A stretch of DNA of 64,000 bases from a virus (taxonomy: Duplodnaviria > Heunggongvirae > Uroviricota > Caudoviricetes). Made by a program: the position numbers and the translations under genes. The notes under the pieces were generated by a model. It had not been told where the DNA came from and searched no databases. It saw nothing but the letters and a program-made list of their open reading frames with translations. Below, piece by piece: positions 1 through 64,000 of this stretch (its first letter is position 1; every line of letters starts with the position of its first letter). The stretch lies in the IMG/VR virus record IMGVR_UViG_3300028584_001240. One strand, given 5' to 3'.

Positions 1-484
1 CATTTTTTCTCAAAATAATTTCGTTAATAATCTCATGATCACTGGTTTGCATATTCATCAAAACAGCACATTGTTGAATAACAGTATCAATTCTTGCAAT
101 AACATCTTCCTTTGAAACCTTACCCTTGTAAGAGCTGGTGGCAACCCCTGAATATTTTTGAATCGCTTCTGCGAAACGACCAACATAACCAGTCAAAGTA
201 ATGAATCCCATATGAATTTTTTCGATTTGATATGAACGCTTTTCACTAAAAGCATTAGCAATGATTGTATTTAAGATGTCAAAATCATCTGATAGATCAA
301 GATGAATAGACACGGCAACCAGTAAGGTGTCAATGGTTTCTTCAAGCATTTCTGAGCGGTCGTTAAGCACAATGGCTTCACCCAGTTCGCCCTGCTCTTC
401 TGTCAGTTTAGTATTTCGTTGAAACAACGTCTTTTTATCAAAAATCATTGAGTTTTTAACTAGCTTTTGTTGTAGATCAATCAT
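1..484 (-). CDS. MazG-like nucleoside triphosphate pyrophosphohydrolase domain protein, C-terminal part of gene (5' end outside window)
   Basis: Manual minus-strand translation from ATG (RC of 482-484): MIDLQQKLVKNSMIFDKK...LTEEQGELGEAIVLND...EETIDTLLV. The EExGELxEA ... EExxD pattern is typical of the MazG fold. GAGG SD sits 8 nt upstream. Not in ORF table because it is truncated by the window edge. Confidence 0.5.
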   Translation of the reverse strand, partial: MIDLQQKLVKNSMIFDKKTLFQRNTKLTEEQGELGEAIVLNDRSEMLEETIDTLLVAVSIHLDLSDDFDILNTIIANAFSEKRSYQIEKIHMGFITLTGYVGRFAEAIQKYSGVATSSYKGKVSKEDVIARIDTVIQQCAVLMNMQTSDHEIINEIILRKN

Positions 485-575
485 TATAATTCCTCTAAGT
501 TTGTCAATAATACTATATAAAAGCAGTATAGCAGACACCTATTTTTTTTTCAATTGTTTCCTTTGTCTAATTATC

Positions 576-866
576 TTAATGTAGACAAACAACACCTTCA
601 ATATGGCAATCACAGGTGCAAATTTCAATTTCTTTGCCATCAACAACCATTTTGTATTCAAAATAAAAGACAAGTGGTGGCATTTTCTTTAAAAATTGAA
701 AACGTCCTCTTTTCTGAGGTTGGTAAGATTTCTGCACACTAATAATAGGAACATCGTCATTGGCTTTATAACGCTTTTTATACGATTGTTGAAGTTTACC
801 TTCATCCAGTGTTCTATCCGGCTTTAAATACTGGTCGTAACAAAGCCTACAACATGCTGCTACCAT
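576..866 (-). CDS. small Cys-rich putative zinc-binding protein, paralog 1 of 4 (N-terminal ACCxxC; C-terminal CxCxCH...C.H)
   Basis: ORF table 96 aa, MVAACCRLCY...CTCDCHIEGVVCLH. Shares its Cys pattern with the next three ORFs. Confidence 0.55.
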   Translation of the reverse strand: MVAACCRLCYDQYLKPDRTLDEGKLQQSYKKRYKANDDVPIISVQKSYQPQKRGRFQFLKKMPPLVFYFEYKMVVDGKEIEICTCDCHIEGVVCLH

Positions 867-878
867 AATATTCTCCTA

Positions 879-1121
879 TTAATGCATACAATTAATGCCT
901 TCGACATGACAAGGACATGTGCAAAGGGATTGTTCTTTTTTACCATTGATAATATAAGTTCTTTCCAGTAACGGGAGATTGTCCCGAGTAAATGGATTCG
1001 TTTCTTGTCTAACTTCAATAACAGAACCTTTACCAAAAGCAGACTCAACAAATTGCTGACTAATCTCGCCATCGGCTTTAATATATTTTTTATAACAGTG
1101 GTCACAGCATGGCATTACCAT
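879..1121 (-). CDS. small Cys-rich putative zinc-binding protein, paralog 2
   Basis: 80 aa, MVMPCCDHCY...CTCPCHVEGINCMH. Confidence 0.55.
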   Translation of the reverse strand: MVMPCCDHCYKKYIKADGEISQQFVESAFGKGSVIEVRQETNPFTRDNLPLLERTYIINGKKEQSLCTCPCHVEGINCMH

Positions 1122-1143
1122 AATTTATTACTCCTAATTCTAT

Positions 1144-1395
1144 TTAATGCATAACACATAAGTTTGGGTCGTTCAGATGACAATCACAATCACATAACTT
1201 CGTTTCTTTACCATCATGAAGAACATACAAAACTTCCTGATCGGGAAGTTGTCGTCTGATTGAGCTAAATGGATGGGGTTCTTTTCGATATACAGTGGTT
1301 GCTTCCGAGCCAAAGTTCTTGGTTAGAAAAGACTTATTAACACTTTTATCCATTTCAATGTATCTGACTTCACTATATTGACAACATGCAAACAT
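1144..1395 (-). CDS. small Cys-rich putative zinc-binding protein, paralog 3
   Basis: Table ORF 1144..1449 overlaps the next gene. I chose internal Met MFACCQYSEV... as the likely true start because it matches the M-x-ACC N-termini of the paralogs. Ends CDCDCHLNDPNLCVMH. Confidence 0.45.
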   Translation of the reverse strand: MFACCQYSEVRYIEMDKSVNKSFLTKNFGSEATTVYRKEPHPFSSIRRQLPDQEVLYVLHDGKETKLCDCDCHLNDPNLCVMH

Positions 1396-1409
1396 GATAA
1401 TTCTCCAAT

Positions 1410-1664
1410 TTAATGCAAAACGTACAGTCCCATACCTTGAACATGGCATTCACAGGTACACAGTTTAATTTCTTCTTGCCCTTTAATCACATAGGTCACT
1501 TTAACATCTTTTAGTTTTCTTTCTGGTGTATTGTAGGGATTAGCTTCAATCCTGTGTTCAAAAGTGGCATTATCACCAAAATTTTCAACAAGAAACTCTT
1601 TTTTAATGCCACGATCTCCCATGATGTATGGGACATGTGCGTGTTTACAGCAAGCTTCACTCAT
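1410..1664 (-). CDS. small Cys-rich putative zinc-binding protein, paralog 4
   Basis: 84 aa, MSEACCKHAH...CTCECHVQGMGLYVLH. Confidence 0.55.
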   Translation of the reverse strand: MSEACCKHAHVPYIMGDRGIKKEFLVENFGDNATFEHRIEANPYNTPERKLKDVKVTYVIKGQEEIKLCTCECHVQGMGLYVLH

Positions 1665-1666: not shown

Positions 1667-2044
1667 TTATTTCACCTTATCTTTTAATAAAAATCCAAAA
1701 CTTAATACATACCTTGAACCACCTACAACTTTTGTCACTGAGTGTTTTGAGATGTCGGGTCTAAAAAACTTAATTCTAGGCCAATTAATGATACTGTTAT
1801 CAGCCACGAATTCACCACCAGAACGCGATTTTTTCAAAATAATATTTAAACGGTAATGTCTAAACCCTTCATCCACTTTGTCAACATGCTCAGGGATTTG
1901 AGATCCTTCTGGAAATTTAAGTAAATAGAGATCAAAAGGAATCGGCCACATAGATTCAAGCAAAGAAATCTTACTGTAACCAGAAGACTGCCGACCTTGT
2001 TTCCATGTAAACCTATCCGATAACTTCATTTTTAAAATCGCCAT
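1667..2044 (-). CDS. hypothetical protein; possible cupin or 2OG-Fe(II)-oxygenase-like small protein (HxD...H spacing)
   Basis: 125 aa ORF with IPEHVD...HYRLNI segment. Weak, pattern-only call. Confidence 0.3.
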   Translation of the reverse strand: MAILKMKLSDRFTWKQGRQSSGYSKISLLESMWPIPFDLYLLKFPEGSQIPEHVDKVDEGFRHYRLNIILKKSRSGGEFVADNSIINWPRIKFFRPDISKHSVTKVVGGSRYVLSFGFLLKDKVK

Positions 2045-2121: not shown

Positions 2122-2148
2122 AAAAAACCCGCACTAGGCGGGCTTTTT
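2122..2148. terminator. intrinsic terminator hairpin downstream of tyrS (cccgc-actag-gcggg flanked by A6 and T5)
   Basis: Sequence aaaaaacccgcactaggcgggcttttt read directly. Confidence 0.7.
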
Positions 2149-3408
2149 AATGAGTCGAAACTCTCGTTTACCACGTTGAAAGACAGCGAATTTACCAAAC
2201 TTGAAATCCGTAATTTCAAGAGCGTTCATATCATCCTCGCTGACTACCAACTTGTTACCGTTTACTTGAACCGCACCACTATGGATAAACTCTCGGCCTT
2301 GTCGTTTAGACTTAGCCAAACCAGTAGCGACCATCAAGTCAAGCACATTCAATGTTTCAGGAACAACAGCGACCATACCGTTCTTTTCAAGGTTGACAAA
2401 ATCATCTTCTTGCAAGCTATCAAAGTTGTTATCAAACAAAGCTTTGATGTTACGCAATACCGAATCAAGTGCTGCTTGACCATGAACAATAGCAGTTAAT
2501 TCCTCTGCCAAAAGCTGTTGAGCCATCGGTTTAGTGCGTTCTTTATCAGCTTCAAGGATAGCGTCAATTTCTTCAATAGACTTAAAGGACAGCATTTTGA
2601 AGAACTTCGGAATATCCGCATCGGCTACTTTCAACCAAAACTGGAAGAAATCAAAAGGGCTGGTCATTTCTGAAGATAACCAAACCGCACCGCTTTCACT
2701 TTTACCAAACTTCGTGCCATCCGCTTTGGTCAGCAAGGGAATGGTCAACCCAGTGGCTACGACATCATTACCTTCTTTACGATGGATAAGGTCAATACCA
2801 GCAGTGATGTTACCCCACTGATCGCTACCACCCAATTGAAGACGGCAATTTTTCTCTTTCATCAAGTGATGGAAGTCCATTGACTGCAGGAGCTGGTATG
2901 AGAACTCAGTAAAAGAAATACCTTGATCATCACGATCCAAGCGGCTACGTACCGAATCTTTACTCATCATAGCATTCACAGAGAAATGCTTACCCACATC
3001 ACGAAGGAAATCAATAACTGAAAGGTTAACAGTCCAATCATGGTTATCAACAAGTTCTACATCACCCAGAATATGTTTGATTTGACCAGCAATACCTGCT
3101 TTGAAACGATTAACGGTTTCCGCGTCATTCAAAGTACGTTCTTGTGCTTTAAAGCTAGGGTCACCAATCATGCCGGTAGCACCACCAATCAATGGGAACA
3201 CAGTATGGCCCGCTTTCTTAAAGCGAAGCATAGTAATCAATGGCAAAAGACTACCCACATGCAAAGACTCTGCTGTTGGGTCAAACCCGCAGTATAGGGA
3301 CAAGCCATTATCCATAAGGTCTGAAATTTTGCTTTCGTCTGTCATCTGAGAAACGAGGCCACGTTGTTTGAGTTCTTGAATAAATGCGTTCATAATATTT
3401 TTCTCCAC
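2134..3408 (-). CDS. tyrS: tyrosyl-tRNA synthetase, bacterial type with C-terminal S4 domain
   Basis: 424 aa. Class I HIGH-like motif (CGFDPTAESLHVGSL), KMSKS motif as KFGKSESG, and C-terminal S4-like KSKRQGREFIHSGAVQVNGNK. GGAG SD upstream of the ATG. Confidence 0.9.
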   Translation of the reverse strand: MEKNIMNAFIQELKQRGLVSQMTDESKISDLMDNGLSLYCGFDPTAESLHVGSLLPLITMLRFKKAGHTVFPLIGGATGMIGDPSFKAQERTLNDAETVNRFKAGIAGQIKHILGDVELVDNHDWTVNLSVIDFLRDVGKHFSVNAMMSKDSVRSRLDRDDQGISFTEFSYQLLQSMDFHHLMKEKNCRLQLGGSDQWGNITAGIDLIHRKEGNDVVATGLTIPLLTKADGTKFGKSESGAVWLSSEMTSPFDFFQFWLKVADADIPKFFKMLSFKSIEEIDAILEADKERTKPMAQQLLAEELTAIVHGQAALDSVLRNIKALFDNNFDSLQEDDFVNLEKNGMVAVVPETLNVLDLMVATGLAKSKRQGREFIHSGAVQVNGNKLVVSEDDMNALEITDFKFGKFAVFQRGKREFRLIKKPA

Positions 3409-4298: not shown

Positions 4299-4694
4299 TT
4301 ATTGAGTAAGTGCTAATTCTACTATTTTGTAAAGGTTATCTACGCCACATTTTTCCAACATATCGATATCCACATTAAAAATATCAACCACTTCTTTTTC
4401 TACAGTTTTTGCCTGATAAATTAAGTCATCAAACATACTGAATACAAAGACTTTAAACACATCGCTTTCAATTGCACCCAAACCTGACCAGTGGTTGGCC
4501 GTTGTATCAACACCGGTTTCTTCTTTAAATTCACGAATCATGGCTTGAAGTGGTGTCTCATCCATTTCAATTTTTCCACCGGGGCCATTTAACAAACCAC
4601 GTTGCCATTCTGGGGTTAATTTGCGTATGAGCAATATTTTACGTTTGTCAGCACTGAAAGCTACGGCGAGAACATATTCTTTTTTATCTGTCAT
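4299..4694 (-). CDS. Nudix hydrolase
   Basis: 131 aa. Complete Nudix box GGKIEMDETPLQAMIREFKEETGV (Gx5Ex7REUxEExGU). Confidence 0.75.
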   Translation of the reverse strand: MTDKKEYVLAVAFSADKRKILLIRKLTPEWQRGLLNGPGGKIEMDETPLQAMIREFKEETGVDTTANHWSGLGAIESDVFKVFVFSMFDDLIYQAKTVEKEVVDIFNVDIDMLEKCGVDNLYKIVELALTQ

Positions 4695-8627: not shown

Positions 8628-9524
8628 TTAACGAATGCTTTCATTCGGGTGAGACATTGAAAAGAGTTTATCAATAGCCTTACCAATGGATGTTTCAAGA
8701 ACAGCGTCTAGACCGAACAAGCCAGCCAAACCACCACTTTTAGCCTTAACATCAGTATTCACCTGATACAGTTGGGCACCGTCTTTAAAAGCCTTCAAAA
8801 TAGCCGAGCGACTATCACCAATTTCATCAACAAGATGTTCCTTCAACACATCTTGTGCCATGTAAAAGTCACCTTCCATCAGCTTTTCAGGATTAATCAT
8901 AGGGCGATATTGCAATACATGGTTTTTGAACGCAGTGTGAATTTCAACCAGTTTTTGTTTGAAAATAGTTTCTTCGGCTTCACTTGGAAGTTTAGTAGGA
9001 ACCACAGAACGCTTATTGGTGCCTGCTGTGTAAACTCGAACATCAACACCGATTTTAGTCAGCACTTCTTCAAAGATAGGCACTTGCGAAACAACACCGA
9101 TAGAGCCAACAAAAGCAAACGGTTGAGCCACAATGCGATCACAGACCGAAGCCATCATATAACCACCACTGGCCGCGACTTCATCAACAAAACCAGTAAC
9201 CTTCAGACCGTGAGCACGAAGACGGTTGATTTGCTGAGCAGCATTCGCATAGGCGGTTACACTGCCACCGGGGCTTTTAATAATCATGTAGACAGCATCA
9301 CCACTTTTGGAGTTAAGGATAGTCATGTCCACATCACGTTCCAGTTTTTCAAACGCATTGCCTTTATCTTCGGCGTTAAAACGAAGAACAAAGATCTTAT
9401 TCAAATAAACGACATCTTTCGTTTTTGCTTTCAATTCACGTCGAACTTCACGACTCTCAATCTTTTTAATGAGTTCACGGTTCATATCTTTGATTTCTGT
9501 TTTAAAACGAATTTCTTTAGACAT
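8628..9524 (-). CDS. S49-family serine peptidase (SppA/SohB-like)
   Basis: 298 aa with a ClpP/crotonase-fold peptidase core (IIKSPGGSVTAYANAAQQI...VTGFVDEVAASGGYMMAS). Overall layout resembles SohB or short SppA. Confidence 0.7.
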   Translation of the reverse strand: MSKEIRFKTEIKDMNRELIKKIESREVRRELKAKTKDVVYLNKIFVLRFNAEDKGNAFEKLERDVDMTILNSKSGDAVYMIIKSPGGSVTAYANAAQQINRLRAHGLKVTGFVDEVAASGGYMMASVCDRIVAQPFAFVGSIGVVSQVPIFEEVLTKIGVDVRVYTAGTNKRSVVPTKLPSEAEETIFKQKLVEIHTAFKNHVLQYRPMINPEKLMEGDFYMAQDVLKEHLVDEIGDSRSAILKAFKDGAQLYQVNTDVKAKSGGLAGLFGLDAVLETSIGKAIDKLFSMSHPNESIR

Positions 9525-9963: not shown

Positions 9964-10569
9964 ATGAAAAAAATGTTAAACAAAGAAGCACTACTCCATA
10001 AAATAAAAGAAAAAAGTACAAAGTTTCTAGAAATAAAAAATCCGGGTGAATTAAATTGTACACCAGAAGGAAACGTTATTGATTTTAATAATATATCATA
10101 CATTAGATTACATAAAGGTCTTTTTATCATCAATAAACACACCGCCAAAAGCTTTTTTAACATTGCTTTTGAAGGTGAAGAAGACGAATATTTAGAAAAA
10201 ATTATCGAAATTTTTAATATATACGCTCATTTTGATTACTTTTTGTATACACCTAAAGACGATGGTTTTAATGTTTACAGCAAAGGTTTTGAAGCGAACT
10301 ATATAGAAAGGAAAATTAAAAAAGAACCTGAAATTGAACAAAAAGAAGGCGTATTTTATTCCAACCTTTGTAAAGAAATATCGCTTGGGCCAATGATGGA
10401 ATGTACATTAGGTATGAAAAATACAGCTTATAGTTATAAAGAGTTATATGAAAACGTCATCTATCCACAATTTCAAGAAATGCTGAAAGAAAGCATTGGA
10501 TTAGAAATTACGCACATGAGCCAGTTTGATGACCGGGCTTTTGAACTATTAAAGATGGCAAGAATTTAA
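9964..10569 (+). CDS. hypothetical protein, C-terminal tail family (ends ...RAFELLKMARI)
   Basis: 201 aa. Met at -4 and Ile at -1, as in the big family. Confidence 0.5.
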   Translation: MKKMLNKEALLHKIKEKSTKFLEIKNPGELNCTPEGNVIDFNNISYIRLHKGLFIINKHTAKSFFNIAFEGEEDEYLEKIIEIFNIYAHFDYFLYTPKDDGFNVYSKGFEANYIERKIKKEPEIEQKEGVFYSNLCKEISLGPMMECTLGMKNTAYSYKELYENVIYPQFQEMLKESIGLEITHMSQFDDRAFELLKMARI

Positions 10570-10981: not shown

Positions 10982-11791
10982 TTAAATAGCAGTCATCAAT
11001 AACAAATCTATTTTATCGGCAATATTTTCTTGTGGTATATCTAAAAATTCTTGATAAAATCCATTATGAAGATTACTCACATACATCATCAATATTTCAT
11101 CTGTAAAAACATCAATATCATGATCAGTAAAAAGGGTGCTGGCTTCTATAATATCTTCCAAGGTCACTAAGCCAGCTAAACTTTCTGGAAGTTTATATAC
11201 CTTTTTATCTGATAGGCTAAAATATAATGAAAAGGGTTGAGTATGATTAAAAAAACGGACTGTTGGAAATAAAGCTATCTTTCCATCGCGGGTTATTGAA
11301 AAGTTTCTAATGAATTCATATTGTCCAACATTTCTATAAGACCGACTAACACATGATGTTATACCATATTTATGGCTATCTTTTTCCAACATGTATGTTT
11401 TTGCAAAAGTATAAAATTCATGAGGCTTTATATCACTACTCAATTTCAATAATCTTGAGAAATTGGTGTTTTTTTGAAAAGAATTAAGAGCTTCATTGAT
11501 AAAATTAAAATCTTTTCTTGATGTTTTATGAATTTGAAACATTTGATTGAACTTGTCTAGATAAGAAAGATCTTTGAGACAAATTGAATGGAAAAGAGGT
11601 TGTCCCGGTGAAATACCGAAACTGAAAAATGGTTTATTTATATTAATGGGGTTCTTATGTTTTTTAAACAAAATATGAACTTGAGTGTCCATCATAGGAT
11701 ATTGTTCATATTCAAAAAATGTTGTTTTTGTTGTTTTGGTATTAAATGCCCCAGAAACAGCATTCCGAAAATTTTCCATAATAAGCTCCAA
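10982..11791 (-). CDS. C-terminal tail family protein (269 aa; ends ...DKIDLLLMTAI)
   Basis: ORF table. Tail motif with M at -4 and I at -1. Confidence 0.55.
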   Translation of the reverse strand: MELIMENFRNAVSGAFNTKTTKTTFFEYEQYPMMDTQVHILFKKHKNPININKPFFSFGISPGQPLFHSICLKDLSYLDKFNQMFQIHKTSRKDFNFINEALNSFQKNTNFSRLLKLSSDIKPHEFYTFAKTYMLEKDSHKYGITSCVSRSYRNVGQYEFIRNFSITRDGKIALFPTVRFFNHTQPFSLYFSLSDKKVYKLPESLAGLVTLEDIIEASTLFTDHDIDVFTDEILMMYVSNLHNGFYQEFLDIPQENIADKIDLLLMTAI

Positions 11792-11812
11792 AAATAATGA
11801 ATCATAATAACA

Positions 11813-12604: not shown

Positions 12605-12606
12605 TG

Positions 12607-48669: not shown

Positions 48670-48673
48670 AATA

Positions 48674-51498: not shown

Positions 51499-51555
51499 CT
51501 TTAAAATAGATGAATCATTATAGCATTATAATAACAAAAAATCCACACAATCTAT

Positions 51556-52122
51556 CTAAATATGAATCATTTCAAGTAACGATATTTCTTCTTTTGATAA
51601 TTGACTTAATGGTCTTTTTAATTCTTCTGGTGTGTTGGCATTTCCAAAATACTGAAAATAGTAATCGAAAATTCTAGTTTCTAATGAGCGTAAATTAGTG
51701 TCATCAAATTCAAGAAACTTCATATAATCATTGCCCAACTCAATGTCAGTAAAGTCAAATGAATAAACTTTTCTCAGTCTTTGATCCATATCAAAAGCAT
51801 AATGACCATTAACATAATAACAGTCTTTTCTCGGATGCTTATTAAAAAAGTCATCATAAAAACCCAGTGTTTTTTCAAGGCGGCTCTCAAAAGAATAACG
51901 ATGGTCTAAATATTCAGCCAAAGGTTCACAAAAAGGATGGTTCCATTTGATTTTAAAACAATGCCCCATCGAAATAGTTTGATTATCAAAAATAATTTCA
52001 CGAGTCAGAATCTCTGGAATTGCTGCACAGAAGTCTTCCTTTTTGATAGAATTAATCAAACAAAAAGTTTGAAGAGATTCAAAGACAGTCTCATCAGTAA
52101 ACTTATAGGTTTCAATCGTCAT
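51556..52122 (-). CDS. C-terminal tail family protein, subfamily D paralog 2 (188 aa; ends ...SKEEISLLEMIHI)
   Basis: Shares DYYxxYFG, PEEL and RPL blocks with its neighbours. Confidence 0.55.
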   Translation of the reverse strand: MTIETYKFTDETVFESLQTFCLINSIKKEDFCAAIPEILTREIIFDNQTISMGHCFKIKWNHPFCEPLAEYLDHRYSFESRLEKTLGFYDDFFNKHPRKDCYYVNGHYAFDMDQRLRKVYSFDFTDIELGNDYMKFLEFDDTNLRSLETRIFDYYFQYFGNANTPEELKRPLSQLSKEEISLLEMIHI

Positions 52123-52137
52123 ATAAAACTCCTAGAA

Positions 52138-52758
52138 TCAAAACACATACATCAAAAATACTTTATATTCCTCTGGTGTCATCTTAGTAATAGGTTTTCT
52201 AAGTTCATCAGGTAAATCCGGCATATAACGAATATACGCTCTATTAAAGAATTCCTCAATCATTTCATAGTAAAGCGTATCATCCATGCCTTCATACATA
52301 ATAATTTCAACACCATCATCGTCTTCATTACAACAATCCGTCAATCTAAGCGTTCTAGCCACTTTAAGCAATCCATTTTTATCAAAATAAAAAGCTTCTT
52401 CATAATCATCAAATGGGTCGTCTTGAACATTAAGACTATTAGCAATTTGGTAAATTTTATCCATAATAGGAAAATGGATATCACCATCATTATTCTGTGT
52501 GCAATGTGCGGCTGCTAATTGAGTTAGCTTACGTTCACAGCTTTCAAGTTGCCAAAAAATAGTGAAACAATCCACCGAAATTTTACTGTATTCACAATAG
52601 TTATTATAGGTGGCAACATTCCCCATCACTTCATCAGTGGTATAGACCTTACCGTCTTTAGTAAATGTAATAGTATCTATAAATTTCCTAATATCATCAA
52701 TTGTGTATTCTTTTGAGATTTTAGGGTAGTTAGTATATTGATAAAAGTCGTGTTTCAT
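52138..52758 (-). CDS. C-terminal tail family protein, subfamily D paralog 3 (206 aa; ends ...TPEEYKVFLMYVF)
   Basis: ORF table. Confidence 0.55.
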   Translation of the reverse strand: MKHDFYQYTNYPKISKEYTIDDIRKFIDTITFTKDGKVYTTDEVMGNVATYNNYCEYSKISVDCFTIFWQLESCERKLTQLAAAHCTQNNDGDIHFPIMDKIYQIANSLNVQDDPFDDYEEAFYFDKNGLLKVARTLRLTDCCNEDDDGVEIIMYEGMDDTLYYEMIEEFFNRAYIRYMPDLPDELRKPITKMTPEEYKVFLMYVF

Positions 52759-53618
52759 ATTGTCTCCATCATTAATAAAGCAAGATAACGATCACGCATC
52801 TCAGTATTAGACAAATCAATCTGGTCTTTTTTCAACCCGTAACGTTGCTTAATGATAGGAAGAAGCCTACTGATAAATTGTGCTTCCATGATTTCAGGCA
52901 ATTGGTCTTTATTAATAGGTCGAGACATCGAAATAAGGTCTTCATAAGATCGAGCCGCAAACACTTGTCTAGTAGTATACACTGTATCAGCATAAACATC
53001 CACAATAAAACTGGCCGCATAGTCTTGGTCAAACCAAGTATCTACAATAAATATGGGTTTAAGGTTGTTGTGTTGATCAATATAAAAATGAAGTTGACTT
53101 TTAATCAAAGAAACCTTTATATGGCTGTATCGTTTATTTTTTTTGTAAGCCTGATTAAATTTTAATTGGGCAATGTTACAACGGCAACATACATCATCTT
53201 GGGCATATTTAGATTTAAAAGAAATATAAGCCACAGGATTTGCAGCTACTGTTTCAAAATCATTCTGCACAATAGACAATATGCCAGATGAAGACATATT
53301 TTTAGCAACATCAATATAAGCTTTTAATACATTGTCAACAGTTTCTCTTTTGATGTTAAAGGCTTTGCAGAAAGTGTGTTCAAACTCATTACGATCTTCT
53401 TTTACAAAGTGATCGACTTTAAAGATTGCACGATTTTTATGAATAAAAACATTAAAGTGACTGTCTGTATTAGTGATTTTAAATTCAAACTGTCCAAAAG
53501 TGCCGGGAACACTTCCGCCTTCTGATGGCGTGTTGATAGCTACATGGGAACTGAGAGCTTGATGTATGTGATCAGCAAAAATTTCTTCTGGCCGTAGACT
53601 GTTTGTAATAGATTGCAT
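52755..53618 (-). CDS. C-terminal tail family protein (287 aa; ends ...RYLALLMMETI)
   Basis: ORF table. 4-nt overlap. Confidence 0.55.
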   Translation of the reverse strand: MQSITNSLRPEEIFADHIHQALSSHVAINTPSEGGSVPGTFGQFEFKITNTDSHFNVFIHKNRAIFKVDHFVKEDRNEFEHTFCKAFNIKRETVDNVLKAYIDVAKNMSSSGILSIVQNDFETVAANPVAYISFKSKYAQDDVCCRCNIAQLKFNQAYKKNKRYSHIKVSLIKSQLHFYIDQHNNLKPIFIVDTWFDQDYAASFIVDVYADTVYTTRQVFAARSYEDLISMSRPINKDQLPEIMEAQFISRLLPIIKQRYGLKKDQIDLSNTEMRDRYLALLMMETI

Positions 53619-53717: not shown

Positions 53718-54950
53718 TTATTTTACAATAACCGTCGCCGTTAATGGAACACTACATCTTTCTTCATTGTTAACAGTCTTACATGCTGATATATAATAAG
53801 GATAAGTTCCAACTGCTGCTGGTGCATTAGTTGGAAAAGCTACAACTGCAGCCGTTGCTGAGTTAGTTGCCTTTCTAACAAGTGTTGATCCTGCTGATTT
53901 AGAGAACACATCAAAGGTTAATGCTGTATTAGGAGCTACTGTATTTTGGTATCTCACATTATTAATCATAGCAATAGTAGCCGTAGGTGATGCTTCAATC
54001 GTTAATGGCTTTGTTATGGATGCACTACCACCTGCTTCATTATAAGCAGCTAACACAATATTGAATGTGCCTTCACATACACCACATACAGTTTTTTGAA
54101 CGCCTGATGTTGCATCAACAAAAGTACTTGGAAAACCAGTATACGAACTAGATGATCTTATTTGATAACTTGTTGCATTAGTTGCATTAAAATTAAGTGC
54201 ATAAGTTTGACCACCATAAATGACACTTGGAAACTCAAATGAATTGATTACTGGTATAGCCACAGACTTCACCGTTACACTTTTTGTAAAGACTTTACCT
54301 TCTTCATTGGTAGCTTCAAGTGTGTAAATGGTATCACCAATTGGGTGAACTCGACCATAAGTTACAGTTTTAAGTGTTTTAGTTAATAATGCTGAATAGC
54401 CAAGATTATTCGTTAACTTTAATGTCGTAGGTGTTGGCATATCCCATGTAAATACCAAAGAAGTGTTAGTATTAGATACTACTGGTTTATCAACGGTGAA
54501 GCTAGTAATCATATTGACATCAGCTACATCTACTGTCAGTGTACGTTGTTCACTATTACCAAATGAGTCAATACCTTCCAATATATAATTAAAATTTCCA
54601 CTATTAGATTGAGTAACATTACGGCTAGTTGTTTTATTATCTATTACTTGTCCATTAAATTTTAATGTCACTGCATTTTTAATAGACCAATCAAATTTTG
54701 AAATATCACCTTTATTAACTGTATTTGAGTCTACAGTAAATGAAATAATTTCAATTTTATCTTTATCGTCAGGAATTGGATTTTCTTCAACAGGTGGAAT
54801 TTCTTCTACTGGCGGAACTTCTACTATAGGTTTACTGACAAACACAATGTTTGATTTATCAGGAGAAATTATGACTGTGTATTGGTTTGCAGCATAAGTG
54901 CTTGAAACTAACATCATGGATAATAATGTTATTTTTAGATTTTTATTCAT
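53718..54950 (-). CDS. secreted repetitive protein with Pro/Glu repeats (PPVEEIPPVEENPIP) and probable Ig-like beta domains
   Basis: 410 aa. Signal peptide MNKNLKITLLSMMLVSSTYAANQ. Confidence 0.5.
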   Translation of the reverse strand: MNKNLKITLLSMMLVSSTYAANQYTVIISPDKSNIVFVSKPIVEVPPVEEIPPVEENPIPDDKDKIEIISFTVDSNTVNKGDISKFDWSIKNAVTLKFNGQVIDNKTTSRNVTQSNSGNFNYILEGIDSFGNSEQRTLTVDVADVNMITSFTVDKPVVSNTNTSLVFTWDMPTPTTLKLTNNLGYSALLTKTLKTVTYGRVHPIGDTIYTLEATNEEGKVFTKSVTVKSVAIPVINSFEFPSVIYGGQTYALNFNATNATSYQIRSSSSYTGFPSTFVDATSGVQKTVCGVCEGTFNIVLAAYNEAGGSASITKPLTIEASPTATIAMINNVRYQNTVAPNTALTFDVFSKSAGSTLVRKATNSATAAVVAFPTNAPAAVGTYPYYISACKTVNNEERCSVPLTATVIVK

Positions 54951-55043: not shown

Positions 55044-56918
55044 TCAGACTGCAATGTATTTTGCAACAAATTCAGCTTCGGTCAAGATTTCAATATCAAC
55101 ACCTTTCGCTTTCAAGGCTTGGGCGTCAGCAAGTTTACTACCAGCACTTTCACCGTAAACAAGAATTTGTGTTGTCTTGCTTGCTTTGCTTTGGATCTTC
55201 GCACCTTTCGATGTGAAGAACGCTTCAATCTCTTTACGTGAGTAGCTAACCATTGTACCAGTTACCACCACGTTCTTACCAGAGAATGGACTATCATTGT
55301 CAACAACTGCTTGTGAAGACAATTCAAGATTGAACAAAGGACGCAAGGTATTAATCAATTCAAGTTTTTCTTGAATACCGGCTGGAATGAGAACGCTATT
55401 CACTGGGCCGTAACCTTTCATCTTAATCAACTTACCTTCTTCGACTTCATGCAGTGCGTCGATATTGAAGACTTTAAGCAACTTTTTAGAGTCGCCTTTA
55501 CCAAGACTCGAAATACCGAAGGCTGCAAGGAAACGCCAGTCTTCAATTTGACTTGATTTACTGGTTTCAAGAGCGGCGACCAAGTTAGGGCTTTCACCTT
55601 TACCAAAACCAGCGGTCAAGAAATCCTGCTCTTTCATTGCGTAAATCTTTTCCAAGGTGTCGAAACCTGCTTCAACCAACTTAGCGACTGTTTTACCACC
55701 AAAACCATCGTTGTTAGCCAATGTTGCAAAGAAGTGCAACAAGGTCTGGCTAATTTGTTCCGAGCAACCTGAATGGTTAGGGCAGAAAAGGAAGTGACTT
55801 TCCCATTCAAGCACAGTGTTACAGCAAGGGCAGTTCGTTGGAACTTCGTATTCAGCTTGGGTAATCACTTTTTCAATTTTAGGGATTACTTCACCACTAC
55901 GAATGATTTCAATGACGGCACCTACACCCATTTTGTTCGTGCGAACGTTGTTCATGTGGTGAGCGGTTACGTTACTAATCGTTGCACCAGACACAAGAAC
56001 AGGAGCCACAGCAAGAACCGGCGTGATAGTGCCAGTGCGACCTACTTGAAGTTTAACATCAAGCACAGTAGTCTGTGCAGTTTCACCACGTTCTTTAAAT
56101 GCACACTGCCATTTATTGTGATGGTTGTTGTAGCCCATGTATTCTTTGATTTCTGGAACAATGGATTCAATCACGAAACCGTCAATCAAGTAAGGAATAG
56201 CAGCACGCAAATCGTTGTTGATTTGTACAAGGTTAGCAAGAATGTCATCAGCCGTGCCAACATAAGCCTGCAACGTGGTGTAAGGCACAAAATGAATCGC
56301 ACCGTCATCCAAAGCCTTCTGAGTTTCAGGGCGTGTATCTTCCTGAGACAATACGCTGCTCATCATGTTACGTGGATGTGGGAACATCGAAGCAAGGTTC
56401 TCTGCGAAATAAGTCTTGTCAATCACCAACTCGCCACGACCTTCTGCATTTTCTTTACGAATAACACCTTTATCGTAGATGTAAGTAATGTCGTTACCAC
56501 GAATGCCATCACCACGAGTAGATAGTTTTTCTGTTTCATGGCAACCCGCAAAACCATCAAGTTTGCAAGTAACTTTATACATGGATTTTACATGAAGATC
56601 CTGAGCTACGTCTTCAACACGTTTAAACCATTTAGCCAAGGCTTCGGAAGTGTAGAATTTTTCGGTTGACAGCATAGGGGAAGAGTGAGTAATAGCGTTT
56701 TCGCCAACTTCTTCCAATTCAATTTCATCAAACCATGTTGATTCAGGGAATTTAGCACGAAAATCTTCAACAACAGCGTCATAATTTTCATCGGCAATTG
56801 GATCAAGACCAAACAATGCAGTCTTTGGCAACGATTTACGGTAGCAATCGTTATAATCTTCAAGCAGCTCAATGAAAGCAGCTTCGGTTGTTGGGTATTT
56901 GATGTCATTGATATTCAT
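55044..56918 (-). CDS. ligA: NAD-dependent DNA ligase
   Basis: 624 aa. Adenylation motif CKLDGFAG (KxDG), Cys4 zinc finger CPCCNTVLEWESHFLFCPNHSGC, HhH region and C-terminal BRCT domain. Confidence 0.88.
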   Translation of the reverse strand: MNINDIKYPTTEAAFIELLEDYNDCYRKSLPKTALFGLDPIADENYDAVVEDFRAKFPESTWFDEIELEEVGENAITHSSPMLSTEKFYTSEALAKWFKRVEDVAQDLHVKSMYKVTCKLDGFAGCHETEKLSTRGDGIRGNDITYIYDKGVIRKENAEGRGELVIDKTYFAENLASMFPHPRNMMSSVLSQEDTRPETQKALDDGAIHFVPYTTLQAYVGTADDILANLVQINNDLRAAIPYLIDGFVIESIVPEIKEYMGYNNHHNKWQCAFKERGETAQTTVLDVKLQVGRTGTITPVLAVAPVLVSGATISNVTAHHMNNVRTNKMGVGAVIEIIRSGEVIPKIEKVITQAEYEVPTNCPCCNTVLEWESHFLFCPNHSGCSEQISQTLLHFFATLANNDGFGGKTVAKLVEAGFDTLEKIYAMKEQDFLTAGFGKGESPNLVAALETSKSSQIEDWRFLAAFGISSLGKGDSKKLLKVFNIDALHEVEEGKLIKMKGYGPVNSVLIPAGIQEKLELINTLRPLFNLELSSQAVVDNDSPFSGKNVVVTGTMVSYSRKEIEAFFTSKGAKIQSKASKTTQILVYGESAGSKLADAQALKAKGVDIEILTEAEFVAKYIAV

Positions 56919-57003: not shown

Positions 57004-57822
57004 TTAAATTTTCATCATATCGAAAAGTGTATTGATTGATTCGACATCAAAGCTCTCAAAATCAATAGTGGTGCCAGTGAAGGCTTCAAAACGAGCTTTA
57101 TAGTTAATGTTAAACAGCTCACGTTTAATCACATACGTCAACTCCGTTAAGAAGTCATCGAATTTTTCAAATGTCTTGGATGTTTGAAAAAGAACATTTT
57201 CTTTATCTAGGTCATCAAGACTAATGATTTTTACATTGTAATAAAAAACATTATTCAGTTTTCTGAAATTAATAATCAATTCTTGATGATTTTTCTGACC
57301 CATCATTACAGAACTGAACTTGGTTGGTGTATGAAAAGTATGTTGAATGCCTGCAATGTATTCATTAAAAATAATATCATAGGTTAACGACACTGGTATA
57401 GTGCTGTTTGTACGATAATTGCCGTGGTCGTCATAGATTTCAGCGGGCACAGTCATTCGATTAAATCGTTTATCATACCAAAAGCTGGATAGCTTACTGC
57501 TCATCCGTTGTGGGGTCTTAAATCGGCTTTCAAAGCCAGTACCTGATGTGAATAGTCGATAGTCAAACATCACCGTAAACAGATTAGTACAAATTTCAAA
57601 CATCTGTTCTTGACTGAATGGGGCTTCATACTCCATGTTATTAATCAAAGCAGTATATGCCTTATTAAAGCCAACTTGTAAATCAATACCATCTCTCGTC
57701 ACTTTGGGCAAGTTATGAATTACTAAGCCATTATCCACCATTTTTAGGCAGGATTTCATAAAAGGTTTAATCTCGTGATCATCAAAACCAGATTTATAAT
57801 GTTTAGCCATCAGTTCAATCAT
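57004..57822 (-). CDS. C-terminal tail family protein (272 aa; ends ...INTLFDMMKI)
   Basis: ORF table. Confidence 0.5.
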   Translation of the reverse strand: MIELMAKHYKSGFDDHEIKPFMKSCLKMVDNGLVIHNLPKVTRDGIDLQVGFNKAYTALINNMEYEAPFSQEQMFEICTNLFTVMFDYRLFTSGTGFESRFKTPQRMSSKLSSFWYDKRFNRMTVPAEIYDDHGNYRTNSTIPVSLTYDIIFNEYIAGIQHTFHTPTKFSSVMMGQKNHQELIINFRKLNNVFYYNVKIISLDDLDKENVLFQTSKTFEKFDDFLTELTYVIKRELFNINYKARFEAFTGTTIDFESFDVESINTLFDMMKI

Positions 57823-60912: not shown

Positions 60913-61692
60913 TCAAATATAAGACATTCTGATAAGATCAAGCTCTCTTTTATTAAACATCTTATTGGTTCTTAAAAAATGAGTAAAGCTACTACCATAC
61001 AGTTTAGTCACACTTATCTCACATGTTTTAAGAATATCACTCAGTAAAATAGATTCCAGTTCACCTGATTTAAAGACAAAATAATGCACATCATAAATAT
61101 TAACATCGTGTAAAGTGGTGCCATCTTCTTGAAGTATGCTTTTAATGGGGCGTTCAACCACCATAGGCACTGTGCCATTAATACCTTTCTGCAAAGGTCT
61201 GCAGTCTTCCAAGAAATACCAAATTTGGTCGATTTTAAACGTGGTATCATCAATTTCATATGACATGCTTTTTAAATAAAGATCTTTTAACAATCTTTTA
61301 GGTTTTGCAAATTTAATCATCCGTGGCAATCCTGACGGACTAAATGCTATGTTATATGACAAAGAATATTCGCTTCCTTTTTCAAAGGATGCACTAGTTA
61401 TTACAAAATAGGATTGCTCTTTTTTATCAACAACCGCCGAGGCAAGTTCAAGGACACATCCTTTGTTATTACTATATCTATAAATAATTTCATTAACTTC
61501 AAACCCAATATCATTAAAAAATTGATTGAGTTCATCCGTGTCCAAGTCAAACTTCAAGCAATAATTTGAACTTTCAATAATATTCATAACCAGCGGTTTG
61601 TATTCTTCACAGTTTTCTTTATTGATTAGATAATGATCAACATAATGAAATTCAATTCTAGATAAGTAATCTTCTTCAGTAGCTTCTGGCAT
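60913..61692 (-). CDS. C-terminal tail family protein, subfamily E paralog 1 (259 aa; ends ...KRELDLIRMSYI)
   Basis: Shares LQKGINGxxxMxxExP, NIYDVxY and DIL.xC blocks with the next two genes. Confidence 0.6.
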   Translation of the reverse strand: MPEATEEDYLSRIEFHYVDHYLINKENCEEYKPLVMNIIESSNYCLKFDLDTDELNQFFNDIGFEVNEIIYRYSNNKGCVLELASAVVDKKEQSYFVITSASFEKGSEYSLSYNIAFSPSGLPRMIKFAKPKRLLKDLYLKSMSYEIDDTTFKIDQIWYFLEDCRPLQKGINGTVPMVVERPIKSILQEDGTTLHDVNIYDVHYFVFKSGELESILLSDILKTCEISVTKLYGSSFTHFLRTNKMFNKRELDLIRMSYI

Positions 61693-61713
61693 ATTTAACT
61701 CCCTAAATCGTAT

Positions 61714-62496
61714 TTAGATATACATCATCTCAATGATATCCCGCTCTCTTTTAGTAAACATTTTAGACATAGTAAGAAAATCAGTGTAATCAGTGCCATA
61801 CATTCTAGCACAACTAAAATCACACTGTGTTAATATATCAATCAGTCGAACTTCCTTAGATTTACCATGTACAGTATAGTAAACATCATAGATATTTACA
61901 TTGTAAAATGACTGAGTGTTTTCAACAATTCTTTTTAATGGATGTTCAATAATCATTGTTATATAGCCATTAATACCTTTTTGTAGCTTTCTGTTATCGT
62001 TAAAACAATAACCAATTTGGTCGATCTTAAGAGTATCACAGTCTATGATATAATGAATAGATTTAAGGGTAAGTCCTTTCAATATTTTGTTTGCTGATTT
62101 AAATGTTCGAGAAACAGCAACACCTTGTAAATTGTAAGACGTAAAATAACTGTGAACGTAACGATCATTCTTAGTAAACTCAACCCATTGCAAGACATAG
62201 CGGTCTTGTACAACCTCACCCTCAATGACAGCAGTTAAATCAATCTCACATCCTTGGTTGTCATTGAATTTCAACGTATTTTCTTCAGATAAAAATCCAG
62301 ATAATGAGAGAAATTCATTCAATTGTGCTCGTTTTAAATCAAATTTTATGATGTAAGAATAATCTTTCAACATCTCAATGAGATTGTCTTTGTATTCATG
62401 CATATTATTTTCGTTAATAATATGTGTCTCCAAATAACGATATTCAATTTTGGCTTCTAACTTGGTAGGTTTTAGTGTATTCATAACAATCGTCAC
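61714..62496 (-). CDS. C-terminal tail family protein, subfamily E paralog 2 (260 aa; ends ...KRERDIIEMMYI)
   Basis: Paralog by eye. Confidence 0.6.
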   Translation of the reverse strand: MTIVMNTLKPTKLEAKIEYRYLETHIINENNMHEYKDNLIEMLKDYSYIIKFDLKRAQLNEFLSLSGFLSEENTLKFNDNQGCEIDLTAVIEGEVVQDRYVLQWVEFTKNDRYVHSYFTSYNLQGVAVSRTFKSANKILKGLTLKSIHYIIDCDTLKIDQIGYCFNDNRKLQKGINGYITMIIEHPLKRIVENTQSFYNVNIYDVYYTVHGKSKEVRLIDILTQCDFSCARMYGTDYTDFLTMSKMFTKRERDIIEMMYI

Positions 62497-62576
62497 TCAA
62501 TAATTCTTTGTATATTATACTATTTTACTTAATAAATCAATTGAAATGTTGATTTTCTTTTTTAATTTGTTATCCT

Positions 62577-63341
62577 ATGCCTAAGAAAAGGATACTGACC
62601 ATGAATATGAAAAAAGTTAAATTAGCAGACGTATTTGAAAAGTATGGCTCTCATTATATGGTGAAATATCATGCCAGTATAGAAAATGGTATTATTTTTG
62701 AAATTGAAAAAAAATTTGGACATTCTAGAGCTAAAAATACATTTTCGACGGAATATAATATTTTTACAACTTTTAATCCACTACTTGACGAAGATTACAA
62801 AAATCTAGTTGAATATCACAGTGAAGAAATCGCTCAACTAAATAAAGGTTCTTTCTTATCAACACTCATTAATAAAGATAAAAAAGAAAAAATTAAATAC
62901 CATCAAAACAGACTAGAAGCCTTAAATGAAGTGTATGCCACCAGCGAAAAAGATAGATATATCACCAATGAGAATGATGTTGTGGTTCTCTATACTTCTG
63001 AGATTAATGTAGGTGATCATTTGCATATTGTTGATTTAAGAAATAAAGAAGAAATTAACCTTGAAACAGTTTATGTAGATGAATTGGTTCCTTTTTTTGA
63101 TGATGATAAAAACATACGATTAAAAATAAACATAAGGGCTTTTAATGTTGATAAAGTTGAATTAGACAATATCAACTTCGTTGATAACTATTGTTCTCCA
63201 ATAACTGATTATCATGTATTTAATGATCGTGAAAAAGCTTATGATTTTTCAATAGAAGAACTCATGAAAAACGAATACAATGAAAACATAAAAATGAGAT
63301 TAAAGCTTGCCAAAAAGATAGACAATTTATTTGGATATTAG
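62577..63341 (+). CDS. hypothetical protein (254 aa)
   Basis: ORF table. No tail motif. Confidence 0.45.
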   Translation: MPKKRILTMNMKKVKLADVFEKYGSHYMVKYHASIENGIIFEIEKKFGHSRAKNTFSTEYNIFTTFNPLLDEDYKNLVEYHSEEIAQLNKGSFLSTLINKDKKEKIKYHQNRLEALNEVYATSEKDRYITNENDVVVLYTSEINVGDHLHIVDLRNKEEINLETVYVDELVPFFDDDKNIRLKINIRAFNVDKVELDNINFVDNYCSPITDYHVFNDREKAYDFSIEELMKNEYNENIKMRLKLAKKIDNLFGY

Positions 63342-64000
63342 ATATAAGTCATTTCGATGACTTTCAGTTCATCCTCATCAAAAACATTCTCAATATTCAT
63401 GAAGTGTTCCATATTATTGCCAATCAACCTATCAAAGCTAAAACCACATGTCTGAATAATATCAGATAAGGTGAAAGATCGAATACGATCTGTATCAGAA
63501 GTAATAATATAGACAATATCAAATATGGAGACATTGTTGAATAACTGATCATCAATAGTAATACTTAATAATGGTTCTTCTTCAATGCGATGAATATTAT
63601 AGTCAAGCTTATGTGCAAATGTTTTAAGCGAGTTTGAAGTATGTAATTCAATATGATTTAAATCGAAAAGATCGCATGAATGATGAATGCTTATGATATC
63701 ATACGTTTCTTTATCGAGTTTTATGACATAGTTAAAATCTACTGAGTATGTGCCCTTAGAATACTGTTCATATTGACTCTTGTAACTGATGTCAATTCTA
63801 TACATATGCTCAAATTCAAAAGAAATTCTTTTAACATTATCAGGGTAGTTAAGTGTTGATAAATAATAACCCTGTTTATGTTTAGGGGATGTACGGATAG
63901 ATAGAGTTAAGTGATAACCTGAACTATTCTTATAAATAGATCTTTCTTGTCGTTTAAAACCTAGCTTATTAAGAAATGAATCAATCTCGCCAACTGGCAA
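63338..64000 (-). CDS. C-terminal tail family protein, subfamily E paralog 3, 5' end outside window (ends ...DELKVIEMTYI)
   Basis: The ORF runs to the window edge. 4-nt overlap with the convergent gene. Confidence 0.55.
   Translation of the reverse strand: MPVGEIDSFLNKLGFKRQERSIYKNSSGYHLTLSIRTSPKHKQGYYLSTLNYPDNVKRISFEFEHMYRIDISYKSQYEQYSKGTYSVDFNYVIKLDKETYDIISIHHSCDLFDLNHIELHTSNSLKTFAHKLDYNIHRIEEEPLLSITIDDQLFNNVSIFDIVYIITSDTDRIRSFTLSDIIQTCGFSFDRLIGNNMEHFMNIENVFDEDELKVIEMTYI

Follow-up and report, generated by a model that had tools for sequence, protein, structure and literature searches.

A 64-kb slice of a recurrent ~1.85-Mb AT-rich replicon and its proteins with a shared C-terminal motif

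The IMG/VR virus record IMGVR_UViG_3300028584_001240, assigned to the Caudoviricetes, contains the 64,000-nt stretch of DNA that is analysed here as a whole (the window). We conclude that the window is a slice of an AT-rich, ORFan-dominated replicon of ~1.85 Mb, one of a recurrent clade. With moderate confidence, we interpret this replicon as a giant, non-cellular replicon of a bacterium, most probably a virus of tailed-phage origin (a "megaphage"). To judge from sequence similarity, its host may be Gram-negative, a gamma- or beta-proteobacterium. An earlier reading of the letters and open reading frames (ORFs) of the window, the original prediction, had assigned it to a jumbo phage or another large mobile genome carrying translation genes, rather than to a core chromosome.

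Size and relatives of the replicon

The size of the replicon was read from contigs in public assemblies. The 634-amino-acid product of the window gene at 5898-7802 is recorded, 100% identical (P0026), on a JGI contig of 1,851,360 bp. DNA syntenic with the window is present on the ENA contig k141_522346 (1,843,594 bp), with 79% nucleotide identity to the window, and on the JGI contig Ga0308158_10000001 (1,859,102 bp), with 72% identity. Further relatives are contigs of 1,917,244 (JGI), 1,539,155, 834,842, 773,483, 604,313 and 520,353 bp, and one of 392 kb. At least four contigs of 1.84-1.92 Mb have thus been assembled from different samples, by different assemblers (JGI, and ENA contigs with k141_ names), and from different strains (100%, 90%, 71% and 68% protein identity). 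Each protein that was looked up occurs in one copy per large contig, which argues against concatemers.

The nearest relative in the viral catalogue is a 437-kb IMG/VR contig, IMGVR_UViG_3300031133_000383, which is syntenic with window positions 576-18043, encodes a SerRS and a TyrRS that are 74% and 79% identical to those of the window, and carries the C-terminal motif described below. The relevant stretch of this contig is found, identical, on a 604-kb contig from a sister metagenome. In all, three IMG/VR contigs (437, 181 and 290 kb) carry the same gene families. Among 185,579 GTDB species genomes the window locus was not found, and the best SerRS identity was 54% (gamma- and beta-proteobacteria), as against 74% on the IMG/VR contig. 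A comparison with 50,697 GenBank phage records gave no DNA match, and protein matches that were remote only.

Regions of the clade away from the counterpart of the window were reached through a second gene family, SWCI, which is dispersed and multi-copy in the clade. Its members are proteins of ~600 amino acids with a C-terminal domain containing G-S-x-S-W-C-I and Q-Y-F-I-Y-D-F. Two copies are in the window, records for the 1,851,360-bp contig include two more paralogue types, and SWCI proteins are also encoded in the clade loci L112, L114, L116, L118, L131 and L133, in several of which the SWCI gene is followed by a conserved gene for ~460-540 amino acids. Neither Pfam nor PHROGs contains a match to the family; outside the clade it is linked only to the 642-kb phage LR756502, by a marginal match, and tblastn of the SWCI domain against 72,556 PLSDB plasmids gave 0 matches. 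The regions reached in this way are 286-307 and 317-338 kb of the 437-kb contig, two regions of the 181-kb and one of the 290-kb IMG/VR contigs, Logan contigs, and 1,468-1,490 kb of the 1.84-Mb contig.

The sampled regions resemble one another in having a GC content of 27-34%, ORFs of the C-terminal-motif family, and few recognisable genes. In the region of the 1.84-Mb contig, which lies 535 kb from the counterpart of the window, 33 of 35 genes have no Pfam match, and the gene content differs from that of the window-syntenic region. Two further regions of the 437-kb relative have a Pfam match for about 7 of 43 ORFs (an endolysin-type cell-wall hydrolase, VWA, TnpB, DUF305, an HD 5'-deoxynucleotidase, MerR and a trypsin-like protein), and none of the 23 ORFs of L131 has one. 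Other clade loci encode MutM, a PerM-type transporter, GAPDH, UvdE, nucleoside deoxyribosyltransferase and MYG1, and related loci also encode HD dNTP/dNMP hydrolases, a MazG-like protein and Nudix. Given that ORFan-rich regions are found up to 535 kb away, we conclude that the window is unlikely to be an island carried by a bacterial chromosome. The original prediction had likewise set the window apart from a core chromosome, and this view is upheld by the scarcity of Pfam matches in every sampled region and by the lack of a GTDB genome with the locus. Ribosomal protein, RNA polymerase and rRNA genes, of which rRNA and ribosomal proteins had been singled out in that prediction as speaking against it, were found neither in the window nor in the sampled related regions. 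None of the IMG/VR contigs with gene families of the clade contains the 16S 515F site; the scan for it matched six unrelated contigs.

Some matches in the pooled scans proved misleading as clade genes. PolB and dCMP deaminase were discounted, as they trace to L119, an unrelated 271-kb contig without motif ORFs, and an RNA ligase match, too, had looked like a clade gene. A "head-tail adaptor" PHROG match is absent from the six clade loci that were rescanned and comes from L117 or L119. L129, with a GC content of 23%, was set aside from the clade as a different entity. Together, L129 and L130 (27-kb Logan contigs, SRR25400119 and SRR25400317) encode an SWCI-like protein, NifU, LspA, Nudix, a Thg1-like protein and RNase T, with almost no motif ORFs, and they probably represent a different large AT-rich element. 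In the locus L116 of the 437-kb relative, positions 4912-6342 hold a TnpB/OrfB_IS605-type gene, where the Pfam match was placed by sequence features only; IS200/IS605-like elements are thus present in these genomes.

Proteins with a common C-terminal motif

A methionine four residues from the C-terminus (position -4) is found in 36 of the 85 window ORFs, compared with 23 of 1204 ORFs (1.9%) in a control set drawn from 80 bacterial loci (binomial P ~7e-39). With a stricter definition of the motif, the counts are 33/85 in the window and 1/1204 in the bacterial control. The pattern is [L/V](-7)-Φ(-6)-[E/D/K](-5)-M(-4)-x-x-[I/Y/V](-1)-stop, and a weaker amphipathic pattern extends back to about -22. 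The motif genes make up 42% of the window, are mostly 200-300 codons long, and are arranged in tandem arrays. This family was absent from the original prediction. We considered whether the shared gene ends reflect a DNA signal, such as a promoter, a terminator or a recombination site. This was ruled out: the ends are conserved at codon positions 1 and 2 only, the third positions and the stop codons are variable, and conservation does not extend past the stop. We conclude that the signal is at the level of the protein. The Pol-beta-like ORF at 42737-43831 also has Met at -4, but its end, LVKMKEA, otherwise falls outside the motif.

By sequence, the motif proteins form many small groups that are not joined by BLAST, hidden Markov models (HMMs) or hhalign. 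Iterative HMM searches with motif proteins as seeds recovered only their own seeds, hhalign linked a single pair of subfamilies (95.7% probability) in 325 comparisons, and an HMM of the motif alone scores at most 13 bits, which is too weak for database searches. No motif protein has a Pfam match, and the PHROG matches are marginal only. AlphaFold models were obtained for members of two groups that are unrelated to each other, namely the product of 15938-16771 (pLDDT 84.6 and pTM 0.83, from a 21-sequence alignment) and that of 18874-19632 (pLDDT 75.6, from a 3-sequence alignment). Comparison of the fold that carries the motif with PDB and BFVD gave no match. We infer from the models that the motif proteins, ~40% of the window genes, are probably one very divergent superfamily of ~250 amino acids with a fold absent from these two databases.

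The motif tail is retained in orthologues at 55-90% identity. An exhaustive profile search of 1.84 billion representative proteins with one motif subfamily returned only 16 clusters, and of the distant homologues retrieved for it, 14 of 14 carry the motif at their ends in an unchanged register. Since the tail has a fixed distance from the free C-terminus in all members and also in the distant homologues that were retrieved, it is probably read by a common partner. The family would diversify by tandem duplication, with the tail serving as a common handle for one shared partner and the variable body conferring a role specific to each paralogue. Such a partner might act in packaging or targeting, in the assembly of oligomers, or as a protease that recognises the C-terminus and so times proteolysis.

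Two members of the family depart from the motif: 18091-18855 (minus strand) has Ile in place of Met (...PVLAIERY), and 7876-8574 (minus strand) has four extra residues past the motif (...LLLKMYNI-GENM). These variants are natural test cases for the importance of the Met and of the free C-terminus. The clade also has a second conserved C-terminal end, which is absent from the window; it is shared by four tandem proteins of 277-427 amino acids, encoded at 1934-6093 of locus L001 of the 437-kb relative, that end in Y-x-Y-F-Y-Y-x-x-C-R-K-P-[IV].

Short conserved terminal peptides on otherwise dissimilar proteins, the form that a shared address label would be expected to take, are also known from the targeting of T4 internal proteins and the loading of encapsulin cargo. 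The T4 targeting sequence is N-terminal and is cleaved off, and the cargo-loading peptides of encapsulins are C-terminal. Neither resembles the motif in sequence. Moreover, unlike T4 or encapsulin cargo, the motif proteins probably have bodies of one fold, such that common descent alone could explain the tail.

Translation genes, expression signals and other genes

A greedy, non-overlapping set of ORFs of at least 50 amino acids has 85 members (mean 233 amino acids), covers 93% of the 64 kb, and so matches the roughly 85 ORFs of the original prediction; the GC content is ~32%. In a Pfam scan of all ORFs of at least 60 amino acids, nine of the 85 had a match: TyrRS, Nudix, S49, SerRS, SPFH, DUF7716, a class-II aminoacyl-tRNA synthetase (aaRS), Bax1-I/YccA and LigA. 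Of the approximately ten recognisable proteins claimed previously, TyrRS, SerRS, ThrRS, LigA, S49, SPFH, BI-1/YccA and Nudix are thereby retained. MazG is not, as it has no match in the window at E≤0.01 in Pfam and is not among the PHROG and NCBIfam families listed; the MazG-like PHROG match is confined to related DNA outside the window. As had been claimed, housekeeping genes are missing: window proteins gave 0 matches to ribosomal, RNA polymerase, central-metabolism or envelope-biosynthesis families in Pfam, NCBIfam and PHROGs. The long co-directional blocks with overlapping stops and starts were also borne out, the longest blocks having 17 and 15 genes, and 15 same-strand neighbours overlapping, 10 of them as ATGA or TAATG. 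The aaRS genes lie outside their conserved operon contexts.

Signals of bacterial gene expression, another element of the original prediction, are abundant in the window. Of 78 ORFs, 44 (56%) have a Shine-Dalgarno (SD) core at a distance of 3-12 nt upstream, compared with 5.2% at random positions. Hairpins followed by T runs, with the GC-rich stems of intrinsic terminators, number 17 in a 20-kb sample (30-50 kb), compared with 7.7±2.7 in shuffled sequence. The best promoter matches, near-consensus TTGACA-N17-TATAAT sites, are located in intergenic gaps; the number of sigma-70-like promoters in this AT-rich DNA, 107, is not above that in shuffles (95.8±8.7).

Attenuation, which the original prediction had also named, was borne out in that the ThrRS gene appears to be preceded by a leader-peptide attenuator, to judge from its sequence elements. 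An ORF of 25 codons (45970-46047), with an SD sequence 9 nt upstream, encodes MKLFAVNTTTTTTQFNSWAGRLLLS and contains six Thr codons in a row. It is followed by a strong intrinsic terminator (46065-46092) that lies directly before ThrRS (46149). Part of the 5' arm of the terminator, AGCUGGG, is repeated upstream, making an alternative pairing possible. The fold z is -2.25. No Rfam family matches the attenuator. Its arrangement is like that of thrL of the thr operon and of pheM, the leader of pheST, in E. coli, in that a short ORF with its own SD and a run of cognate codons, here six for Thr, is followed by a terminator, and an upstream repeat of a segment of the terminator 5' arm allows alternative pairing. 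It differs from these attenuators in lacking an Rfam match and in its target, a threonyl-tRNA synthetase gene on a mobile or viral genome. The ThrRS gene of E. coli is itself controlled by translational autorepression and not by attenuation. The leader would raise ThrRS levels when charged tRNA-Thr is scarce. Because attenuation by a leader peptide needs coupled bacterial transcription and translation, it would place expression of the ThrRS gene on bacterial machinery. No Tyr-rich peptide precedes TyrRS, and no T-box or other aaRS leader was found in the window by Rfam. A match to the Trp operon leader at 2119-2203 (minus strand), on the TyrRS 3' end, falls below the Rfam threshold (27 bits, with a gathering score of 41; E 0.27) and is most likely just the terminator hairpin.

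The ThrRS aligns to residues 242-601 of E. coli ThrRS and lacks the N-terminal editing domains; from this architecture, mischarging with Ser may occur if the host does not supply editing in trans. Both ARAGORN and Rfam find two tRNAs in the window. The tRNA-Lys(UUU) decodes AAA, the commonest codon of the window (68 per 1000), and the tRNA-Pro(UGG) decodes CCA, the commonest Pro codon. The claim that one of the tRNA genes encodes its CCA end was correct, for tRNA-Pro only. A claimed tRNA pseudogene could not be recovered, there being no third tRNA-like match in Rfam down to E≤0.5.

The remaining features of the window are collected in Table 1. Copies of the Cys-rich tandem family (576-1664), whose products may bind metal, also occur in the 437/604-kb relative. 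In LigA, the OB, HhH and BRCT parts are well conserved and the adenylation domain can only just be recognised by comparison with E. coli LigA; no GenBank phage ligase reaches 30% identity. A two-subunit NAD ligase in PDB (9hu3) is matched weakly as well. Genes of membrane quality control recur, namely the SohB-like S49 peptidase (8628-9524), the HflK-like SPFH protein (31533-32441) and the YccA/BI-1 protein (50209-50859), with a PspC gene just outside the window (L106 20000-20266). In E. coli, HflK and YccA are both modulators of FtsH. The S49 peptidase has, in addition, a weaker match to the PHROG head-maturation protease family phrog_53.

Table 1. Features located in the 64,000-nt window
Feature	Position	Strand	Basis
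Small Cys-rich protein family, tandem, 84-101 aa, ending C-x-C-x-C-H...H	576..1664	-	BLASTP paralogues; no Pfam/PHROG match
125-aa ORF	1667..2044	-	Homologues in jumbo phages; 70% identical in 437-kb relative
TyrRS, 419 aa with start as called in relatives	2134..3393	-	Pfam 2.1e-75; TIGR00234 1.9e-115; 79% identical in 437-kb relative
Nudix hydrolase	4299..4694	-	Pfam 1.2e-11
SWCI family protein, copy 1, 634 aa	5898..7802	-	C-terminal domain; P0026 100% identical
S49 serine peptidase, SohB-like	8628..9524	-	Pfam 1e-30; NCBIfam SohB 2.4e-62
C-terminal-motif member ending ...LLKMARI-stop	9964..10569	+	End motif
C-terminal-motif array, 7 genes, 253-304 aa each	10982..16771	-	End motif; orthologues retain motif; AF2 model of 15938-16771
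SerRS	16772..18043	-	Pfam; TIGR00414 1.8e-144
C-terminal-motif array, 8 genes, 204-269 aa, first with Ile replacing Met	18091..24142	-	End motif; AF2 model of 18874-19632
SWCI family protein, copy 2, 714 aa	24585..26729	+	35% identical to copy 1 over 344 aa
Membrane proteins, three tandem paralogues, 142-175 aa	26877..28300	+	BLASTP paralogy; hydrophobic sequences
137-aa ORF	28333..28746	-	Xanthomonas jumbo-phage homologues; 54% identical in 437-kb relative
C-terminal-motif genes, n=3	28800..31013	-	End motif
SPFH/Band-7 membrane protein, HflK-like	31533..32441	-	Pfam 1.9e-27; TIGR01933 hflK 5.7e-21
C-terminal-motif member	34601..35494	+	End motif
C-terminal-motif member	37256..38095	-	End motif
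tRNA-Lys(UUU), no encoded CCA	38149..38224	-	ARAGORN and Rfam
tRNA-Pro(UGG), encoded CCA	38273..38349	-	ARAGORN and Rfam
C-terminal-motif member	39337..39999	-	End motif
DUF7716 protein	42363..42683	+	Pfam 1.7e-21
Pol-beta-like nucleotidyltransferase family	42737..43831	+	phrog_24943, 3.3e-33
C-terminal-motif genes, n=2, 42% identical mutually	43886..45405	+	End motif
Putative Thr-codon leader-peptide attenuator	45970..46092	+	Leader ORF, SD, terminator
ThrRS, catalytic and anticodon-binding domains only	46149..47327	+	Pfam; TIGR00418 4.2e-117
C-terminal-motif genes, n=4, ...KMxYY subtype	47371..50142	-	End motif
BI-1/YccA-type membrane protein	50209..50859	-	Pfam 3.3e-20
C-terminal-motif genes, n=4	50929..53618	-	End motif
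Hydrophobic-N-terminus protein, probably secreted	53718..54950	-	Sole match weak: phrog_3995 (labelled tail protein) 1.5e-4
NAD-dependent DNA ligase LigA	55044..56918	-	Pfam; TIGR00575 5.4e-92
C-terminal-motif member	57004..57822	-	End motif
C-terminal-motif genes, n=2, 38% identical mutually	60913..62496	-	End motif
C-terminal-motif member, N-terminus beyond window; 289 aa in near-identical DNA	63338..64000	-	End motif

Nature of the replicon

The gene mix of the window, with its auxiliary aaRS genes, codon-matched tRNAs, NAD ligase, Nudix and many ORFans, is phage-like. Three window ORFs have homologues with 27-51% identity in jumbo phages of Pseudomonas, Ralstonia, Xanthomonas, Stenotrophomonas, Acinetobacter and Vibrio. 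For ORF 1667-2044 they are in Ralstonia RP12, Pseudomonas Lu11 and Phabio, and Vibrio nt-1 (40-50% identity), and for ORF 28333-28746 in the Xanthomonas jumbo phages XacN1 and Xoo-sp13 (47-51%). ORF 42737-43831, which has no relative in PDB by sequence, matches by tblastn, at 27-34% identity, Pseudomonas pPa_SNUABM_DT01, Acinetobacter ME3, LR756504 (636 kb) and LR756501 (735 kb). The only matches bearing on tail, baseplate or lysis genes are the endolysin-type hydrolase of the 437-kb relative and the weak phrog_3995 match in the window. A PHROG "portal protein" match in the window (E 1.9e-9) was rejected as a portal, the only unassigned ORFs of >260 amino acids being the aaRS genes and LigA. 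The original prediction was thus largely accurate in what it observed and pointed the right way, but its interpretation is upheld in part only. Its jumbo phage holds with respect to gene mix, jumbo-phage homologues and the IMG/VR relative; it does not hold with respect to size, as ~1.85 Mb exceeds that class, and no virion gene, the complete absence of which would by that prediction speak against it, was seen in the ~240 kb sampled.

Several points weigh against a virus of tailed-phage descent. The largest phage genomes in the reviews and surveys consulted, which extend to September 2026, are 735-841 kb, and one review states that genomes of >1 Mb are known only in Nucleocytoviricota. At ~1.85 Mb, the replicon is 2.2 times the size of the largest reported phage genome (2.2-2.5 times across the reported range), a size without precedent for a phage, which would require a capsid greatly exceeding that of phage G in size; the searchable literature yielded no description of a bacterial element or phage of ~1.85 Mb. 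The tie of the window to the 1,851,360-bp contig consists of one identical protein and the recorded size, and the IMG/VR scans returned only the 437-kb contig and not those of 604 kb or 1.8-1.9 Mb. Capsid, portal, terminase and tail families are absent from PHROG and Pfam scans of the window and ~180 kb of related DNA. The related DNA was anchored on one gene family and covers ~3% of any one 1.85-Mb contig (<15% of any one genome). With so small a share of any one genome sampled, failure to see the structural module is expected and says little. The host assignment is weak, its basis being the similarity of the aaRS proteins and the identity of the phages that share homologues. Lastly, the motif tail could be merely a buried core helix of the fold.

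If the replicon is indeed a giant virus derived from tailed phages, TyrRS, SerRS, ThrRS and the tRNAs would sustain translation of its AT-rich mRNAs during host takeover, and the SohB-like peptidase, the HflK-like SPFH protein, YccA/BI-1 and PspC would act on the inner membrane of the host or on the FtsH network. We also put forward, tentatively and with some doubt, a more far-reaching proposal: that the clade comprises the first bacterial viruses well above 1 Mb (~1.85-1.92 Mb), or a new giant virus-like class, with hundreds of genes in a superfamily of new fold whose C-terminal address label is read by one machine, which would load a particle or compartment or time proteolysis.

The alternative that survives best, which we regard as unlikely but take seriously, is a giant non-viral extrachromosomal element of ~1.85 Mb, megaplasmid-like or a bacterial equivalent of Borgs, that is maintained and never packaged. 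Such an element would account for a size beyond that of any known phage, for the lack of a virion gene in every sample, for the recovery of no more than a 437-kb fragment from IMG/VR, and for host-like genes such as SohB, HflK-like SPFH, YccA, PspC, MutM, the PerM-type transporter, an SMR-family (PF00893) protein, GAPDH and TnpB. However, Pfam families for replication initiators, partition, relaxases and conjugation or type IV secretion are likewise missing from the sampled parts, and the SWCI domain has no counterpart among the PLSDB plasmids. Megaplasmids consist of well-annotated bacterial genes, whereas ~85-95% of the genes here belong to no family, and the few gene links that exist point to jumbo phages. 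The auxiliary aaRS genes and codon-matched tRNAs also speak for a virus, since their combination is a viral trait.

It is improbable that the contigs represent a bacterial chromosome, from an unusual and rapidly evolving species such as an intracellular symbiont, in which the window would be an effector-rich region and the motif a secretion signal. A size of 1.85 Mb is typical of bacteria, C-terminal secretion signals are known in type IV effectors, and TyrRS, SerRS, ThrRS, LigA, SohB, the HflK-like protein, YccA and the tRNAs are ordinary cellular genes, the aaRS genes being ~50% identical to proteobacterial ones. Against this, only 0-17% of genes have a Pfam match in every sampled region, the samples contain no ribosomal protein, RNA polymerase, rRNA or core-metabolism cluster, and no GTDB species genome matches. 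The ThrRS without editing domains, the LigA with a barely recognisable adenylation domain, the position of the aaRS genes outside conserved operon contexts and the mean ORF length of 233 amino acids argue in the same direction.

Even less probable is an ordinary huge phage of at most 800 kb, the sizes of 1.8-1.9 Mb being assembly artefacts (concatemers or chimeras). Concatemer artefacts are known in viral catalogues, and the IMG/VR relative measures 437 kb with its sequence on 604 kb in a sister assembly; but the large contigs recur at least four times across samples, assemblers and strains, each carries looked-up proteins in one copy, and two regions of the 1.84-Mb contig that are 535 kb apart differ in their genes. 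A giant virus of a eukaryote (Nucleocytoviricota) is very improbable: mimivirus-like viruses do have genomes of this size, AT-richness, aaRS genes, tRNAs, NAD-dependent ligase, Nudix and large paralogous families, all of which are matched here, and theirs is the sole phylum so far reported with genomes of >1 Mb, but the SD sequences before 56% of ORFs (5% in the control), the ATGA/TAATG stop-start overlaps, the GC-rich terminator stems with T runs and the putative attenuator, which depends on the coupling of transcription and translation in bacteria, are all signs of bacterial expression, and double-jelly-roll capsid protein, A32 ATPase, VLTF3 and family B polymerase are absent from all clade loci examined.

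Among known systems, the closest to a giant virus of this kind are the huge metagenomic phages, described in clades of up to 735 kb (Al-Shayeb et al. 2020) and, for BF3, at 841 kb (bioRxiv 10.1101/2025.01.14.633092). Like these, the window is rich in ORFans, uses the bacterial code and bacterial expression signals, has auxiliary aaRS genes, tRNAs, NAD ligase, Nudix and nucleotide-metabolism genes in co-directional blocks, and has a relative listed in IMG/VR; the Pol-beta-like nucleotidyltransferase is common to the window, LR756501 and LR756504. Unlike them, the replicon is 2.2-2.5 times larger, shows no virion genes in the sampled parts, and devotes locally up to ~40% of its genes to one tagged superfamily. 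The Borgs and jumbo elements of Methanoperedens, at 0.5 to >1 Mb, have few annotatable proteins, multicopy families, and an unsettled status between virus and plasmid (PMC12660748, PMC13444090). The replicon is similar in being giant, in these gene features and in posing the same virus-or-plasmid question. However, Borgs are archaeal, and the window has bacterial SD sequences, sigma-70-type promoters, intrinsic terminators and attenuation; no genes common to the window and Borgs were detected.

Whether the replicon forms virions is the decisive question. If it is a virus, the reported size limit of phages would be more than doubled; if it is not, it would be a bacterial counterpart of the archaeal Borgs. 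The upper size of bacterial viruses is directly testable with contigs that are already in public data. The motif family provides a clean, experimentally tractable puzzle of how a giant element organises dozens to hundreds of paralogues, and a Thr attenuator on a mobile, editing-less ThrRS would be an example of an element that senses the charged-tRNA pool of its host. Either outcome, virus or not, alters the view of which mobile genomes are possible in bacteria.

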